Below are positions 20,802 through 27,870 of a stretch of DNA of 64,000 bases, in pieces (the stretch's first letter is position 1; every line of letters begins with the position of its first letter). The position numbers and the translations under genes were made by a program. The notes below the pieces were generated by a model. The model did no database searches, was not told the DNA's origin, and worked only from the letters and a program-made list of their open reading frames with translations. Origin of the DNA: a bacterium (GTDB lineage Bacteria; SAR324; NAC60-12); assembly GCA_965233585.1 (NCBI GenBank), contig CBDDTI010000747.1:608001-672000 (forward strand). The letters are read 5' to 3'.

Positions 20802-22112
20802 TTAAAAAGAGTTTTCTGAAAAAAGGTTTACTGTTCCTATTGTTTGGAGCAAGTTTTGATAAAAACGGAGCATCGCCTCATACTCTTCAAGTGTGATGTA
20901 TTCGTCAACCCCGTGAAGCTGTGCCAGACGTTTTTGATGAAAAGTGATGGGAATGAAACGATAAATTGCATCGCTGATGTCCATGTAGTGCCTTGAATCT
21001 GTTGAGGCAGGAGTGATCCAGGGAACAAGAATCATTTTTTGATGAAAAGTATTTTGAATGACTTGACCCAATTTGGCAAGTACACCTTGCTTCGTGACTT
21101 GAGCCAGTTGCGTTGTAAAATCAGGAGTCTGCTGAAAATTTTCAAAACTATCATTCCATACAACATGATGATGTTTCAGATATTTGGCAATTTGTGTCCT
21201 GATTTGTTTTTTGGGAGTTGCAGGATAGCCCCTGATTTGCAATGTAATCTGTGCTTGTGATGGATTCATGGAGTGAATGGATTGAATCTTGATAGAGCTG
21301 GTGAGTATGGTCTTCATCAAATCATCATAACGAGCCAAAGGGGCGATTATTTTAGATAAGACTTGAGGGATTCCTTGTTGAGTTAAAAATGTTTCAACCA
21401 CTTCAAAATGAAAGGGGAATTTGACACGTTGCAATTCATTTAAGACCTGCAAGGTTTGTGAATGTTGTGATAATGCGGAATGTCCTTGTTGCTTGAAATG
21501 AAGTTTGAGGTTGATTTGCCAGATGTTTCGTTCTGTGATTCCAATCAAGGCAAATTGTTTGACCCCCAAAGGCAGAGGATTGTTGACAAATCCGCCACCT
21601 TCATCAAAAACTGCATCAAGGCGAATGCCCTGTAACTTCAAAAAATTTGCCATTTGTCTAGCACCATTGAAACCCCCTGACTCTTCATCAGCACCAAAAG
21701 CAAAGAATAAAGTATTTTGAGGTTGGAAGTTTTTTTGTAGAAGTGCCTCAATGCCTTCTAAAATGGCAAGCATGGCAGATTTGTTGTCAATCGCTCCCCT
21801 TCCAAAAATCTTTCCTTGCTTGATGACTCCACCAAAAGGGGGGTCGTTCCAATCGTCAGCATTGGCAGGAAAAATATCTTGATGGGTACTCAAAAGAAAC
21901 CGATGAGGTTCTGACAACTGACCTTGCCAAGTCAGTAAAAAACTCTTGCCAAATTGCTTGAACGTTAAACTTTTGAAAGTTTGTGGAAATTCATTTTGTA
22001 AAAAACGGAAAGAATCAACAAAAGCAGGACTGTTGAAGGTGGTTGGGAATTGTAAAAAACGAGACAAACGTTGGGCTTCTTCAAAAGGCTTTGCTTGGCA
22101 GAGAGAGGACAA
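20802..22112 (-). CDS. M20-family peptidase/amidohydrolase; start uncertain
   Basis: THQD, GRGAIDNK, DEE, DEGG, TDSRHY, HGVDE. Confidence 0.85.
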   Translation of the reverse strand: MSSLCQAKPFEEAQRLSRFLQFPTTFNSPAFVDSFRFLQNEFPQTFKSLTFKQFGKSFLLTWQGQLSEPHRFLLSTHQDIFPANADDWNDPPFGGVIKQGKIFGRGAIDNKSAMLAILEGIEALLQKNFQPQNTLFFAFGADEESGGFNGARQMANFLKLQGIRLDAVFDEGGGFVNNPLPLGVKQFALIGITERNIWQINLKLHFKQQGHSALSQHSQTLQVLNELQRVKFPFHFEVVETFLTQQGIPQVLSKIIAPLARYDDLMKTILTSSIKIQSIHSMNPSQAQITLQIRGYPATPKKQIRTQIAKYLKHHHVVWNDSFENFQQTPDFTTQLAQVTKQGVLAKLGQVIQNTFHQKMILVPWITPASTDSRHYMDISDAIYRFIPITFHQKRLAQLHGVDEYITLEEYEAMLRFYQNLLQTIGTVNLFSENSF

Positions 22113-22299
22113 GATGAAGAAAGAGAGTAGGCTGTACTTTGCAACTACGAAAGAAAGTGAAAACCCAAATAAATGATTGAAGGATTGATGAACTTGGGTC
22201 AGAGTCAGTGAGGATTGTTGAGGAGTGAAGGAAGTTTTTGAGAGACAACTTGCGACAAAGTAGTCTTCTTCAAAATGAACATCTACAATTTCAAAATTG

Positions 22300-22869
22300 C
22301 TAGATTGTCAGAATTTCTTGTTCTTTTTCAGCAATCAAGTCAGACACTTTTTCAATAGCTTGGTCTGTCATTTTTTGGATTTCGTTGCGTGCTTGCTTCA
22401 AGTCATCTTCAGAGATGGCTTTGTTCTTTTCTAACTGCTTTGCCTCGTCATTGGCATCGCGTCTGATATTCCTGATGGCGACTTTATGTTCTTCGCCTAT
22501 CTGACGCACTTGTTTTGCTAGTTCTTGACGTCTTTCTTCAGTTAAAGAAGGAATGGTTAGTCTGACGACATTGCCATCATTAGAGACAGCACCGCCCAAG
22601 TTTAGCTTTTGGATGCTTCTTTCAATTTCTTTGATCGCTCCCTTGTCCCAAGGATTGACGACTAACAGCTGAGCCTCGGGTGCTGTAATTGCCCCAACTT
22701 GTAGCATGGGAGTCATTTGTCCGTAATATGAAACTTTGACATTTTCCATCATGGCAGGAGAGGCTTGACCTCCTCTGACACCAATTAAATGTTTAGTGAG
22801 ACTTTGCAAAGCCCCGTCCATCTTGCTTGAGGCACTTTCGTAAACGTCTTGTAATGTTGCGCTAGTCAT
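22300..22869 (-). CDS. frr: Ribosome recycling factor
   Basis: VRGGQASP, PWDK, LTEERRQEL, VAIRNIRRDAN. Confidence 0.97.
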   Translation of the reverse strand: MTSATLQDVYESASSKMDGALQSLTKHLIGVRGGQASPAMMENVKVSYYGQMTPMLQVGAITAPEAQLLVVNPWDKGAIKEIERSIQKLNLGGAVSNDGNVVRLTIPSLTEERRQELAKQVRQIGEEHKVAIRNIRRDANDEAKQLEKNKAISEDDLKQARNEIQKMTDQAIEKVSDLIAEKEQEILTI

Positions 22870-23600
22870 AATTTGTTTTGGGAACTGATGAGCGTGCCGA
22901 CATTTTCCCCACAAACTGCTTTGACGAGGGTGTCAGGGGAATTGATATTGACAACCATAATTGGAACATCATTGTCTTGACCAAAGCCGATAGAAGTAGA
23001 ATCCATCACACGCAAATTTTGTGTTAACATTTGGTTATAAGAAAGGCAAGAATACCTCAGGGCGTTTTCATGCACCATTGGGTCTTTGTCATACACACCA
23101 TCAATTTTAGTGGCTTTGATGACGATGTCTGCACCAACTTCTCTAGCACGAAACAATGCGGCAGAGTCTGTTGTAATGCCTGTTTGACCACAACCTGCAG
23201 CAAAGATGACCACACGTCCTTTTTCTAAATGACGAATAGCTCTGCGTTGGATGTAAGGCTCTGCCACTGCATTTGCCTCTATTCCAGACATGACACGTGT
23301 TTTAATCCCGTTGTTTTCCAAAAACTGTTGGAGTAAAAGGCTGTTCATCATTGTTGCCAGCATGCCAATATGGTCTCCTGCAACCCCTTGAATCCCGTAA
23401 TAGTCTATGAATTTTTGACTTCCACGAAAAACATTGCCTCCACCTACAACGATGCCGACTTCCATTGCCTCAAGCTGATAAACAGAGATGATGGCATGTG
23501 TTACAGAATCAAAAGCCTCTTTGTCAAAACCAAACCCTCCGTCACCACTCAGCATCTCCCCACTTAGTTTGAGTATAATCCTTTTGTATTGAGCCTTCAT
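22866..23600 (-). CDS. pyrH: UMP kinase
   Basis: KLSGE, VGGGNVFRG, GMLATMMN, TTDSAA, DGVYDKDP. Confidence 0.97.
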   Translation of the reverse strand: MKAQYKRIILKLSGEMLSGDGGFGFDKEAFDSVTHAIISVYQLEAMEVGIVVGGGNVFRGSQKFIDYYGIQGVAGDHIGMLATMMNSLLLQQFLENNGIKTRVMSGIEANAVAEPYIQRRAIRHLEKGRVVIFAAGCGQTGITTDSAALFRAREVGADIVIKATKIDGVYDKDPMVHENALRYSCLSYNQMLTQNLRVMDSTSIGFGQDNDVPIMVVNINSPDTLVKAVCGENVGTLISSQNKL

Positions 23601-23627
23601 AGCAAAGAATTTGTGTCAAAAACTGGA

Positions 23628-25583
23628 TTAGAATTGTAACTTTGCAAATTGTTGAAGTGTGATTTGAGTGCCAAGTTCTTTGGAAGTGTCTTTGAGAAGT
23701 TGCTCAATCGTTTGGTCTGGGTTTTTGACAAATGGTTGTTTCAAAACACAAACTTCGTTCAGGAATTTTTTAAGACGTCCTGCGACCATTTTCTCAATGA
23801 TTTCGGGAGGCTTACCAGATTCTTGAGCTTGGGCAATAAAGATTTCTTTCTCTTTTTCAATCAATGCGGGATTGATTTCGTCAGGAGAGATAGATTCTGC
23901 AGGAGTCGCAGCAACGTGCATGGCAATATCTTTGGCAACTGCAGAAAGACGGGCTTGGTCGCATTCCCCCTTTGTTGCAAGGGCAATCAGTACACCAATT
24001 TTGCCAGTTGTATGCAGATACCCACCAATGACCCCTTGTTCTACTGAGACTTGCTTGGCGTCTAAAAATTGAACATTCTCACCAAGAGTGGCAATAGAAT
24101 CATTCAAAATCTCTTGGACTGTTTTGTCTGTGCTGACTTTTTGGTCTGCGAAGTCAGCAACCCCGTTGATTTGAGCATGCTTGCTGAGAGTTTGAAGTAA
24201 TTCTAAAAATTGCTCGTTCTTTGCTACAAAATCAGTTTCGCATGCAATTTGAACAAGTGCGGCACTAGTTTGTGAGTCATTGAAAGAAAGACCTATTCCT
24301 CCATCTTTGGTTTCTCGGTCAGATTTTTTGAGGGCTTTTGCCTGCCCCGTTTTTCTCAGATGCTCTTTGGCAGCCTCTAAATCACCCCCAACTTCTTGCA
24401 ATGCTTTTTTACACTCCATCATGCCAGCACCGCTGGCCTCCCTGAGTTCTTTGACTAATTTAGCATTGATCTTTCCGTCTGATTGATTTTCCATTGGTTT
24501 GGTAGTTTTTTCGGGTTCAGGGGTTGTGTCTGCTGGAGCGGCGGCTTTGCTAGCTTCTTTCTTATCTTTTTGGGAAGTAGCTTTGTCGGTCTCCTTAGTT
24601 GTGTTTGCTTGAGCATCGGCTTTGCCAGTTTCTTTCTTACTTTTCTCTGTCTTCTTTTTGGTGTCTGCTTTTTTTGCTTGTTCAGGAACGTTTTCTACTG
24701 AAGGCGAATCAGGGGCGTTGACCTGAACGTTTTCTTTTTGAGACTTGGCTTGAGATGCCTTTTTTTCTTCAATCTGTAAACGTTCTTCTCTCAATGCCTT
24801 ACCTTCTGAAGGCGAATCAGGGGCGTTGACCTGAACGTTTTCTTTTTGAGACTTGGCTTGAGATGCCTTTTTTTCTTCAATCTGTAAACGTTCTTCTCTC
24901 AGCGCCTTACCTTCTTTCACTGCAAGGCACAGAGTTTCTACAAAAAGCCTAATAGAGCGAATAGAATCATCATTGCCCGGTATCATCATAAAAAGGTCAT
25001 CAGGGTCAGAGTTAGTGTCAGCAATTCCAAGCACAGGAATTGAAAGTTTTTGGGCTTCACTAATAGCAAGATGTTCATGGTTACAATCAATGACAAAAAT
25101 GGCAGAAGGGAATTTTGTCATGTTGCGAATCCCCCCAAGCGATTGTTCTAACTTTTGACGTTTGCGATGGATTTGAAGAGCTTCTTTCTTCAGCAAAGAA
25201 GGGTAGCTTTCATCATCTCCTGCAAGGCTTTCATATTCCTCCAGCCTTGAGATAGATTGCCTAATCGTTGCAAAGTTAGTCAGCATGCCCCCCAGCCAAC
25301 GATGGCTGACATAGAAAGAGCCACATTCTGTTGCGTATTGTTTGATGATGTCTGACGCTTGCAACTTAGTACCGATGAACAGAACTTCCTTGCCTTCTTC
25401 ACTCAGTTGGCGAATGTATTCATACGCAGATTTGAGTTTTTGTAGGGTGTGTTGGAGATTGATGATGTGAATCCCCTGTTTTTCCCCATAGATGTAAGGA
25501 GCCATTTTAGGATTCCACCTTTGAGTTTGATGCCCGAAGTGGACACTTGCTTCCACGAAGCTCTGAAGAGAAATATTTGTCAT
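23628..25583 (-). CDS. rpsB: Fused 30S ribosomal protein S2 / elongation factor Ts (rpsB-tsf)
   Basis: S2 motifs HFGH..RWNPKM, RWLGGMLTN, PGNDD; charged linker; EF-Ts motifs VKELREASGAGMMECKKAL, CETDFVAKN, DIAMHVAA; no stop between. Confidence 0.93.
   Translation of the reverse strand: MTNISLQSFVEASVHFGHQTQRWNPKMAPYIYGEKQGIHIINLQHTLQKLKSAYEYIRQLSEEGKEVLFIGTKLQASDIIKQYATECGSFYVSHRWLGGMLTNFATIRQSISRLEEYESLAGDDESYPSLLKKEALQIHRKRQKLEQSLGGIRNMTKFPSAIFVIDCNHEHLAISEAQKLSIPVLGIADTNSDPDDLFMMIPGNDDSIRSIRLFVETLCLAVKEGKALREERLQIEEKKASQAKSQKENVQVNAPDSPSEGKALREERLQIEEKKASQAKSQKENVQVNAPDSPSVENVPEQAKKADTKKKTEKSKKETGKADAQANTTKETDKATSQKDKKEASKAAAPADTTPEPEKTTKPMENQSDGKINAKLVKELREASGAGMMECKKALQEVGGDLEAAKEHLRKTGQAKALKKSDRETKDGGIGLSFNDSQTSAALVQIACETDFVAKNEQFLELLQTLSKHAQINGVADFADQKVSTDKTVQEILNDSIATLGENVQFLDAKQVSVEQGVIGGYLHTTGKIGVLIALATKGECDQARLSAVAKDIAMHVAATPAESISPDEINPALIEKEKEIFIAQAQESGKPPEIIEKMVAGRLKKFLNEVCVLKQPFVKNPDQTIEQLLKDTSKELGTQITLQQFAKLQF
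24698..24914 (-). repeat. 108-bp tandem duplication in S2-Ts linker
   Basis: ctgaaggcgaatcaggggcgttgacc at 24698 and 24806; encodes EGKALREERLQIEEKKASQAKSQKENVQVNAPDSPS twice. Confidence 0.95.
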
Positions 25584-25859
25584 GTTCGCTTAAAATGCAG
25601 TGAAACGATTGATTAAAAAATTGAAGGTTTGTCAAAAAGCACCATTCTTCTTGAATAAGAAAACGATACGGTTTCAAACGCAAAACCCGTCATTCTAAAT
25701 GGAAATAAAAACAAAAGCAACTACTTCCTTGTTAAGACAACTTAATGTGAGCATGCTGAGAATAGAATAAAAAAGTATTGATATTCTCTAAAAATTCTTG
25801 CAAGATGCTATGTTTGCAACAAATTTTCAACACTTTTATTTAATGAAGGCAGATTGATA

Positions 25860-26882
25860 ATGAACAATCAGAGTAAAAAAGACAATCAAGACGTTGCTGA
25901 AAAGAAAACGACTTTGCAAGAAATTGAAAAAAAACAGGCTTTGAGCATGTTAGAGCAAATCTTGCTGATTCGTAGATTTGAAGAACGCGCCCAAGAGATG
26001 TACCAACAGCGAAAGATTGGCGGGTTTTGTCATCTTTGCATTGGGCAAGAGGCTACAGTCGTTGGCGTAGCCGCTGCGATTCGTGAAGATGATTTTTTAG
26101 TCACTTCTTATCGCGATCATGGATACGGGCTTTTGCTGGGATTATCACCAGAGCAATGTATGGCAGAGTTATTTGGCAAAGTTGATGGATGCGTGAAAGG
26201 GAGAGGTGGCTCCATGCACTTTTTCAACAAGGACAGAAACTTTTTAGGGGGGCATGGAATCGTTGGCGGGCAAATTCCTGTCGGCACAGGTGCAGGATTT
26301 TATGCAAAATATAAGCAGACTGAACAAGTCAGTCTTGTGTTATTTGGTGATGGTGCAGTGGCAGAGGGGACATTCCATGAATCCCTCAATCTTGCATCTA
26401 TCTGGAATTTACCTTGCGTTTACATCATTGAGAACAATAAGTATGGTATGGGAACAGACATTAGCAGGGTTTCATCAGGGGGGCGATTGTTCCAAAAGGC
26501 TCAAGCATACGGAATGGAAGGTTATGAAATAGATGGAATGGACGTCTTTGAGGTGTACCGAAGGATGTCCCAAATTGTGAAAACATGCCGCGAGACTTCC
26601 CGACCTGTGCTTGTAGAAATTCACACGTATCGTTTTAGAGGACATTCAGTTTCTGATGCCGCAACTTACCGCTCCAAAGAGGAACTAGCCAAATACAAAC
26701 AATCAGACCCTGTTTTATTAACCAGAAGTGCTTTGGAAGAGGCAAAATGGTTGACCGAGGCAGAATTTAAAGCGATGGATAAAAAAGTCAGAGAACAAGT
26801 GATGCGTGCCATTGAATTTTCAGAGGCAAGCCCTTTGCCTGACCTTTCTACTTTGCAAGATCAAGTTTATTGTGAGGGATAA
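25860..26882 (+). CDS. pdhA: Pyruvate dehydrogenase E1 alpha
   Basis: GFCHLCIGQEA, YRDHG, GRGGSMH, FGDGA..EG, TYRFRGHS. Confidence 0.95.
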   Translation: MNNQSKKDNQDVAEKKTTLQEIEKKQALSMLEQILLIRRFEERAQEMYQQRKIGGFCHLCIGQEATVVGVAAAIREDDFLVTSYRDHGYGLLLGLSPEQCMAELFGKVDGCVKGRGGSMHFFNKDRNFLGGHGIVGGQIPVGTGAGFYAKYKQTEQVSLVLFGDGAVAEGTFHESLNLASIWNLPCVYIIENNKYGMGTDISRVSSGGRLFQKAQAYGMEGYEIDGMDVFEVYRRMSQIVKTCRETSRPVLVEIHTYRFRGHSVSDAATYRSKEELAKYKQSDPVLLTRSALEEAKWLTEAEFKAMDKKVREQVMRAIEFSEASPLPDLSTLQDQVYCEG

Positions 26883-26886
26883 GTCA

Positions 26887-27870
26887 ATGATGAAAAAAAT
26901 AACAGTGCGCGATGCCATTCGCGAAGCCATGATTGAGGAAATGGAACGAGATGACAATGTCTTTCTTATTGGTGAAGAAGTGGCAGAGTATGATGGGGCT
27001 TACAAAGTTTCAAAGGGAATGCTTGAGCAATTTGGAAGCAGACGTGTTGTGGATACACCCATTGCAGAAAGCGGATTTACGGGGCTTGCAATAGGTGCTG
27101 CGATGGTTGGTCTTAAACCCATCGTTGAGTTTATGAGCTTCAATTTTAGCTTTGTTGCCATGGACCAAATCATCTCTAATGCCGCAAAAATGTATTACAT
27201 GACAGCAGGTCAATACAATGTGCCAATGGTGATGAGAGGGTGCAATGGTTCTGCTGCTCAAGTGTCTTCTCAACACTCTCATTGCCTTGCCGCAAATTTT
27301 TCATATTTCCCGGGCTTGATTGTGATTTCTCCTTCTTCTGCTGAAGACCACAAAGGTTTGCTTAAATCTGCCATTCGCAATCTGAATCCTGTGATTTTTC
27401 TTGAAAATGAAATGCTTTATGGCGTGACTGAAGAAATTCCCAGTGATGAATACCTCATTCCGATTGGCGTTGCAAAAGTGGTGAAGCAGGGGCAAGACGT
27501 CACCGTCATCTCACACAGCAGAATGGTACACGTGGCATCTGATGCTGTGAATCTCTTGGCTCAAGAAGGCATTGATGCCGAATTGATTGATTTGCGGACT
27601 ATCAGACCACTAGACATCAATACCATTGCACAATCTGTCAAGAAGACGAATCGTGTTGTGATTGTTGAGGAGGGATGGCGTTTTTGTGGCATTGGGTCAG
27701 AAATCAGTGACCAAATTTGTAACACATGCTTTGACTATCTTGATGCACCAGTGGCACGAGTCACTTCTACCGATAACCCGATGCCTTATGCAAAAAACTT
27801 AGAACAAGCAACACTTCCTTCTCCAGAAAGAGTGATTCAAGCAGTCAAAGGTATTTGCTACAAAAATTAA
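26887..27870 (+). CDS. pdhB: Pyruvate dehydrogenase E1 beta
   Basis: GEEVAEYDGAYKVS, DTPIAE, QHS, IDLRTIRPLD. Confidence 0.95.
   Translation: MMKKITVRDAIREAMIEEMERDDNVFLIGEEVAEYDGAYKVSKGMLEQFGSRRVVDTPIAESGFTGLAIGAAMVGLKPIVEFMSFNFSFVAMDQIISNAAKMYYMTAGQYNVPMVMRGCNGSAAQVSSQHSHCLAANFSYFPGLIVISPSSAEDHKGLLKSAIRNLNPVIFLENEMLYGVTEEIPSDEYLIPIGVAKVVKQGQDVTVISHSRMVHVASDAVNLLAQEGIDAELIDLRTIRPLDINTIAQSVKKTNRVVIVEEGWRFCGIGSEISDQICNTCFDYLDAPVARVTSTDNPMPYAKNLEQATLPSPERVIQAVKGICYKN

Follow-up and report, generated by a model that had tools for sequence, protein, structure and literature searches.

The 64,000-nt stretch of contig CBDDTI010000747.1 analysed here (the window; positions 608,001 to 672,000, from the SAR324 assembly GCA_965233585.1) carries on its reverse strand one open reading frame (ORF) in which the genes rpsB and tsf, for ribosomal protein S2 and elongation factor EF-Ts, are fused in frame. 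The fusion is real and is confirmed at the sequence level, it is the only source of either protein found in the genome, and the same architecture occurs in a second genus of the same family. It probably represents a tolerated, self-locking stop-loss fusion, by which EF-Ts would be tethered to the 30S ribosomal subunit.

The fused ORF and its domains

Translated with table 11, the ORF (Table 1) has no internal stop, and the claim of the original prediction that it holds S2 and EF-Ts, both complete, is borne out by the translation and by the Pfam and NCBIfam matches. In the first part Ribosomal_S2 (PF00318) matches residues 10–225 (E 5e-88, 294.4 bits against a cut-off of 26.1) and rpsB_bact (TIGR01011) scores 306.5 bits against a cut-off of 76.3, residues 4–227 corresponding to positions 2–224 of the 225 in the model. 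In the second part EF_TS (PF00889) matches residues 441–639 (E 2e-60, 204.2 bits against 27) and tsf (TIGR00116) residues 371–647 (251.5 bits against 104.05), and the two NCBIfam equivalog models, bacterial S2 and EF-Ts, are thereby covered almost end to end. EF-Ts_N (PF25025) is found at residues 373–415 with 21.7 bits, under its own cut-off of 33.2, and apart from these three families the Pfam scan of the ORF gave only a sub-threshold Asp_Glu_race match and no S1 domain. The S2 'sunset domain variant' model (NF051451) reaches 268.9 bits over residues 1–352 and fails its cut-off of 710, and past the S2 core its match consists of the low-complexity tail only.

Among PDB sequences the S2 part matches uS2 chains best (E 9e-74) and the EF-Ts part matches 1efu_B (E 6e-47); the PDB matches comprise chains of S2 or of EF-Ts by itself and engineered chimeras (EF-Ts-EF-Tu and S2-S1), and there is no natural S2-EF-Ts chain among them. 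In the EF-Ts part TDFV lies at residue 450 and GAGMMECKKAL at 385, and we take TDFV and the GAGMM-CKKAL helix to be the conserved EF-Tu-contacting motifs of EF-Ts. Residues E449, T450, D451, F452 and V453 are invariant in an alignment of 36 fused homologues. An AlphaFold model made with a 36-row alignment has a predicted local distance difference test score (pLDDT) above 90 over S2 residues 11–240 and of about 90 or more over residues 369–651, with the last S2 helix extending to residue 252, and a pLDDT below 50 without secondary structure over residues 254–368. The predicted chain thus has a confident domain at either end and a disordered stretch, 254–368, between them.

Contigs from four public runs, all of one study and from at least two samples, were compared to positions 23400–25800. 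The search for public runs of any kind brought up no RNA run. In three of the runs the contigs are identical to the window over 23400–24727 and 24872–25800, with no differences and no gaps, and they are interrupted only at a 108-bp repeat, where 24727–24872 is tiled by overlapping pieces of 72–138 nt. No contig of the public runs crosses 24727–24872 whole and the copy number of the 108-bp unit is without independent confirmation; it cannot break the frame, because 108 bp is 36 codons. The site of the ancestral stop and spacer, adjoining Met364, lies inside the cleanly matching part of the contigs. The original prediction had allowed for a stop or a frameshift hidden in the linker, and the run contigs have neither, on both sides of the repeat.

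A genome search and tblastn with both parts (E up to 1e-3) found one S2 plus EF-Ts locus in the whole 12-Mb assembly, each time at the same single site, and tblastn gave no second rpsB or tsf. The assembly is a metagenome bin that is 92% complete, so it is unlikely that a further copy of S2 or EF-Ts has been overlooked.

Table 1. Features of the fused locus and of the genes downstream (positions in the window)
Feature	Position	Strand	Remarks
Fused rpsB-tsf ORF, including the stop codon at the low end	23628..25583	-	651 aa, ATG start
uS2 core, residues 4-227	24903..25574	-	TIGR01011, PF00318, pLDDT, PDB matches
Linker, residues 228-370, putatively the old charged tail of S2 and the old rpsB-tsf spacer	24474..24902	-	Comparison with 16 split relatives
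In-frame tandem duplication, residues 224-259 and 260-295	24698..24915	-	108 bp x 2.0, Tandem Repeats Finder (TRF), 98% matches
Internal ATG, Met364 (MENQSDGK), putative relic near the ancestral tsf start	24492..24494	-	No Shine-Dalgarno (SD) sequence upstream
EF-Ts, residues 371-647: UBA-like N-terminal domain 373-415, core/dimerisation domain 441-639	23643..24473	-	TIGR00116, PF00889, PF25025, 1efu_B
pyrH (UMP kinase)	22866..23600	-	Directly downstream of the fused ORF
frr	22300..22914		Downstream of pyrH

The linker

The linker had been described as charged and of about 140 aa, which agrees with the residue counts: residues 231–370 contain 26 K, 19 E and 18 A, with 29 K+R against 27 D+E, no aromatic residue and 12 hydrophobic ones out of 140. 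Over its 420 nt the linker is free of stops in the coding frame, against 2 and 11 stops in the other frames, and only 0.085% of mononucleotide shuffles are stop-free, so the openness of the frame is beyond chance. A feature that the earlier description had overlooked is the tandem duplication of 36 aa, which starts within the last S2 helix and is perfect at the protein level, with two differences in the DNA, both synonymous. A fused protein from the protein catalogues that branches inside this phylum (P0004) has seven PSVNPSM-type heptads in its linker and, to judge from these two cases, the linkers expand by in-frame tandem repeats.

Met364, just ahead of the EF-Ts part, is without an SD, as had been noticed from the letters, and none of GGAG, GAGG and AGGA is present upstream of it. 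The presumed relic Met is followed by a small insert in both fused proteins of the family, M-E-N-Q-S-D-G-K-I in the genome of the window (G000) and M-G-N-S-T-K-I in that of the other fused genus (G008).

Split relatives and the route to fusion

In 16 relatives from the same phylum with separate genes, the region from the S2 core to EF-Ts has in every case a long charged S2 tail that is closed by at least one stop and followed by a spacer and the tsf ATG. These spans, tail and spacer included, are 159–684 nt long, tsf begins with M-x-x-ITA-x-x-VKEL, and in several of the relatives it is preceded by a clear SD reading AAGGAG (L011, L014), GAGGAG (L003) or CAGGAG (L101). G000 and G008 have the same layout of tail and spacer minus the stop. 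Going by this comparison, the linker is native S2 tail plus former spacer, not a purpose-built element, and the event behind it is simple stop loss. The S2 tails of the phylum (L003–L020, L101–L110; for example L102, L004 and L019) are long and charged or rich in Ala, Pro and Glu, and they often have tandem repeats such as KAEEKxEP in L102 and PAMPAQAAPVPPA in L004.

rpsB and tsf share a reading frame in 19 of 27 split loci of the phylum and in 74 of 155 elsewhere, and in 9 of 27 and 30 of 155 respectively they are in frame with a single stop between them. These fractions are inflated, since the ranking of the loci used a fused query, to the advantage of in-frame layouts. The single-stop in-frame layout is seen in L004, L005, L011–L014, L021–L023, L111–L113, L115 and others. 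With such a layout one point mutation is enough to fuse the genes; fusion arises easily yet is seldom kept.

A second fused genus and the number of origins

The original prediction had pointed to a search of genomes for the S2 plus EF-Ts architecture, and this search turned up the second fused genus, G008. Its fused protein is 626 aa long, starts with an ATG behind AAGGAG and has 54–57% identity to the G000 protein, and two sources hold records of an identical G008 protein. The linker of 114 aa (342 nt) can hardly be aligned with that of G000, and no conserved feature or cleavage motif was found between the two; it has no stop in the coding frame against 3 and 9 in the others, and 0.065% of shuffles are open. 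As in G000, the genome search gave one S2 plus EF-Ts match and no second copy.

The trees leave the relation between the two fusions loosely defined. In the tree of S2 plus EF-Ts, G008 stands beside the split genera g7, g4 and g6 (93–99% support) and G000 on a long branch (0.6–0.8) at the base of the family, and a G000+G008 clade is not rejected by the approximately unbiased (AU) test (p = 0.075). In the PyrH tree the two genera form a weak pair (88/71), and the tree of S2, EF-Ts and PyrH together (747 columns) has a clade (94/95) in which G000, G008 and the split g6+g7 form a trichotomy, with p = 0.30 for G000+G008 in the AU test. The similar insert after the Met is a weak hint that the two fusions may descend from a common one. 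The PyrH branch is 1.09 for G000 vs 0.086 for G008, and because this branch is long too, the fast evolution of G000 is a trait of the lineage, separate from the fusion. G000 is a fast-evolving lineage with a GC content of 0.404 on the 1.07-Mb contig. A collection of genome contigs searched with P0001 gave only distant, split loci, and one of metagenome contigs had no full-length match above 38%; neither of these collections held relatives within the genus by which the fusion might be dated.

Distribution of fused forms

Matches were obtained in 85 of the 88 genomes of the phylum that were searched, and two of them, G000 and G008, are fused. A stop-to-stop ORF check of 110 loci, four of them partial, gave 106 with both genes, and here again two are fused (L001 and L002, the loci of G000 and G008). 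No fused form was found among the 78 loci with both genes from genome contigs around a spirochaete-like fused group (80 loci, two partial), nor among the 73 from metagenome contigs (80 loci, seven partial), and for the other loci with both genes the check at DNA level gives 0 of 227.

In the protein catalogues 119 proteins have both S2 and EF-Ts in full, 108 of them out of the 119 others listed by one search and 11 from further searches, all gene calls without a check at DNA level; their linkers range from -26 to 225 aa with a median of 88. After clustering at 50%, about 20 representatives of fused length were present among the best 150 of 30,093 matches. On a 208-row FastTree the catalogue fusions require at least 20 changes of state, and three of them (P0003, P0004 and P0019) branch inside this phylum, beside split genomes. 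The S2-EF-Ts architecture thus recurs but is rare, mostly at tree tips. Trp is present in the linker of 14 of the 119, in some of them near the start of EF-Ts, and it could be TGA read under code 4.

One clade of 30 rows in the tree is all fused and was considered as an ancient fusion retained in spirochaetes. This was rejected: all 78 of the reference loci with both genes around that group are split. The clade is misleading because the catalogue search returned proteins of 358–1140 aa only and thus could return no split members. Two further catalogue proteins differ from the rest in origin or content, P0091 (593 aa, S2 plus EF-Ts), which comes from a eukaryote protein set, and P0027 (1068 aa), which has EF-Ts plus several other domains.

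Proposed working of the fusion and alternatives

In the account that we hold to be the probable one, the stop of rpsB was lost, tail and spacer became the linker of about 140 aa, and a single chain of 651 aa would result. The main product would be a 72-kDa S2-EF-Ts chain serving as both proteins, of which the S2 part should join the 30S subunit normally, and the EF-Ts part would be suspended from the solvent side of the subunit on a flexible tether, roaming the ribosome surface and continuing to exchange GDP for GTP on EF-Tu. As a rough estimate, a coil of 115–140 aa has an average reach of about 10 nm and a maximum of about 50 nm, enough to range over a ribosome of 25 nm, and would give a local EF-Ts concentration of about 0.1 mM. 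EF-Ts and ribosomes are roughly equimolar in Escherichia coli, so a 1:1 fusion need not disturb dosage. The state would be near-neutral and self-locking: once the tsf SD had decayed, a stop in the linker would end the synthesis of EF-Ts, and the frame should stay open while the linker drifts and duplicates, because the tsf SD is gone and such a stop costs EF-Ts. The C-terminus of S2 is expected to accept cargo, since E. coli tolerates a globular domain of 27 kDa there; mCherry has been knocked in frame at the 3' end of rpsB (PMC4081057), S2-mEos2 serves as a label of the 30S subunit (PMC5770553), and an S2-S1 chimera has been crystallised (PMC4288201).

Several points weigh against this account. 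Fused forms are rare and scattered in all sets, and might be mildly deleterious and short-lived. The Met at the former tsf start is kept in both fused genera, and an SD stands ahead of a minority of the starts in the genome. G008 groups with split genera in the S2 plus EF-Ts tree, and support for one common origin of the two fusions is weak. The runs that confirm the sequence are possibly the source samples of the assembly itself, at a depth of only 2–5. This last point, together with the bridging of 24727–24872 by short pieces alone, the origin of the genome as a metagenome bin, and the sporadic fused calls elsewhere, some of which may be errors or code 4 as the linker Trp would allow, is what could be said for a consensus that has lost a stop or frameshift between two truly separate genes. 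We regard such an artefact as highly improbable, since the former stop and spacer region is matched without differences or gaps by the contigs of three runs, the frame is indifferent to the number of repeats, and the independently assembled G008, with its protein recorded identically from two sources, shows the same architecture; in both genera, moreover, the linker is open in the coding frame only. A weightier alternative, possible in our view though clearly the less likely one, is that free EF-Ts is still made, by internal initiation at Met364 or by proteolysis of the disordered linker, so that the fusion would be mostly cosmetic. It fits with the retention of the Met in G000 and G008 and with 67 of the 119 catalogue proteins, which have a Met no more than 12 aa from the EF-Ts core, but in the other 52 the Met is absent there. 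The region upstream of Met364 is A-rich and probably unstructured, the predicted disorder of the linker would make it accessible to proteases, and chloroplast EF-Ts is described as part of a polyprotein with PSRP-7 (PMC1939882; bioRxiv 10.64898/2026.08.28.747797). The 16S 3' ends in the assembly have the canonical CCUCC anti-SD, yet by a crude count over 562 first-ATG starts GGAG precedes 14% vs 6% in the control, and AGGAG 9.4% vs 1.8%; most genes here are thus without an SD and initiation without one is normal. The missing SD therefore leaves room for internal initiation, since an SD precedes only a minority of starts and neither that of the fused gene nor that of pyrH. Against free EF-Ts stand the loss in G000 of the SD-like sequence of the split relatives, of which G008 retains a remnant AAGG 2 nt from the ATG, the want of any cleavage motif common to the two linkers, and the lack of a promoter-like site within 23300–25900. 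The frame has also stayed open over 342–420 nt in two lineages with nearly unalignable linkers, which counts against an internal start because sufficient internal starts would make stops and frameshifts in the linker harmless. From the missing SD, the lack of a promoter-like site and the frame open in two lineages, we lean towards translation as one chain.

The tether might instead be adaptive, selected for recharging EF-Tu-GDP at the site of its release with S2 and EF-Ts fixed at 1:1, and for this speak the sole copy with its frame kept open in two genera, the estimated local EF-Ts concentration of about 0.1 mM within a reach of about 10 nm, and the near-equimolar ratio of EF-Ts to ribosomes in E. 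coli. Selection of this kind seems to us quite improbable: the fused form occurs in 2 of 85 genomes of the phylum and 0 of 227 other loci, the sister genera g6 and g7 thrive with separate genes, the linkers have no conserved feature, and the long PyrH branch of G000 leaves no acceleration or constraint specific to the fusion. The stronger form of the tether account, in which no free EF-Ts exists at all, EF-Tu is recycled on the ribosome surface and the arrangement is selected in a two-genus clade, is in our estimation unlikely as well. The original prediction had offered either an exchange factor tethered for local recycling or a polyprotein that is processed or internally initiated. One of the two must apply, because the fusion is real, the sole source of both proteins and recurrent in a second genus; what needs correcting is the idea of a purpose-built linker. 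A tolerated accident fits better than a designed device for local recycling, because the fused forms are rare and scattered.

Relation to known systems

The fused locus agrees with the ordinary rpsB-tsf operon in its proteins, their order and the pyrH-frr genes downstream, and the split members of the family differ from it by a stop and a spacer; unlike the operon, it has no intergenic stop, no SD for tsf and a single 651-aa product. The chloroplast polyprotein PETs joins PSRP-7, which has S1 domains, to EF-Ts (Beligni et al. 2004, as cited in PMC1939882), and PMC1939882 and bioRxiv 10.64898/2026.08.28.747797 describe chloroplast EF-Ts as attached covalently to ribosomes in many chloroplasts. 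As described there, PETs resembles the protein of the window in that EF-Ts is translationally fused behind a small-subunit ribosomal protein, but the partner here is uS2 and not an S1-domain protein, and the fusion is bacterial rather than nuclear-encoded and plastid, and of independent origin. Because it has no S1 domain, the fused ORF falls outside the PETs family and would resemble it only in its way of working.

Engineered E. coli fusions (S2-mCherry, S2-mEos2 and S2-S1NTD, 4toi_A) likewise carry a folded domain on the C-terminus of S2, but they are artificial, their linkers short and their cargo non-essential, whereas here the sole EF-Ts sits on a natural tail of 140 aa. The S2 plus EF_TS proteins of the catalogues have the same architecture, and are known as gene calls in scattered lineages, the reference relatives of the largest group being fused in 0 of 78 cases. 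A full-text search found no published description of a bacterial S2-EF-Ts fusion, subscription journals being largely outside its coverage, and one for EF-Ts copy numbers gave no figure per ribosome. As far as searched, the fusion is a bacterial variant of the theme of EF-Ts fused to a small-subunit protein, present in catalogues and apparently undescribed.

EF-Ts is normally regarded as a freely diffusing factor. If EF-Ts is tethered here as proposed, the lineage would be a natural test of EF-Tu recycling carried out wholly by a ribosome-tethered exchange factor and of whether a 1:1 stoichiometry of S2 and EF-Ts suffices, and it would parallel, in bacteria, the chloroplast PSRP-7-EF-Ts polyprotein. 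The easy origin and rare retention of the fused state bear on how gene fusions are fixed, and for annotation such fused ORFs should not be split automatically or discarded as errors.

Neighbouring genes and the upstream region

The genes following the fused ORF (Table 1) we take, by recognition of their translations, to be pyrH and frr, and rpsB-tsf-pyrH-frr is the usual gene order in bacteria. The rpsB/tsf loci of the relatives also contain PyrH homologues. An Rfam search of 22000–27000 (E up to 1) detected neither a known rpsB leader nor any further RNA family.

A T-rich segment within the linker, 24669–24702, is matched in three of the runs by records of 39–45 nt at a depth of 127–391 and with three mismatches; these are probably an unrelated abundant sequence of the samples, other than this gene. 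By eye, no SD motif is present before the start of the fused gene or that of pyrH. The G000 start region (25584–25620) has neither an SD motif nor an Rfam leader and the G008 gene has its strong AAGGAG ahead of the ATG, and the operon may be regulated differently in the two genera.

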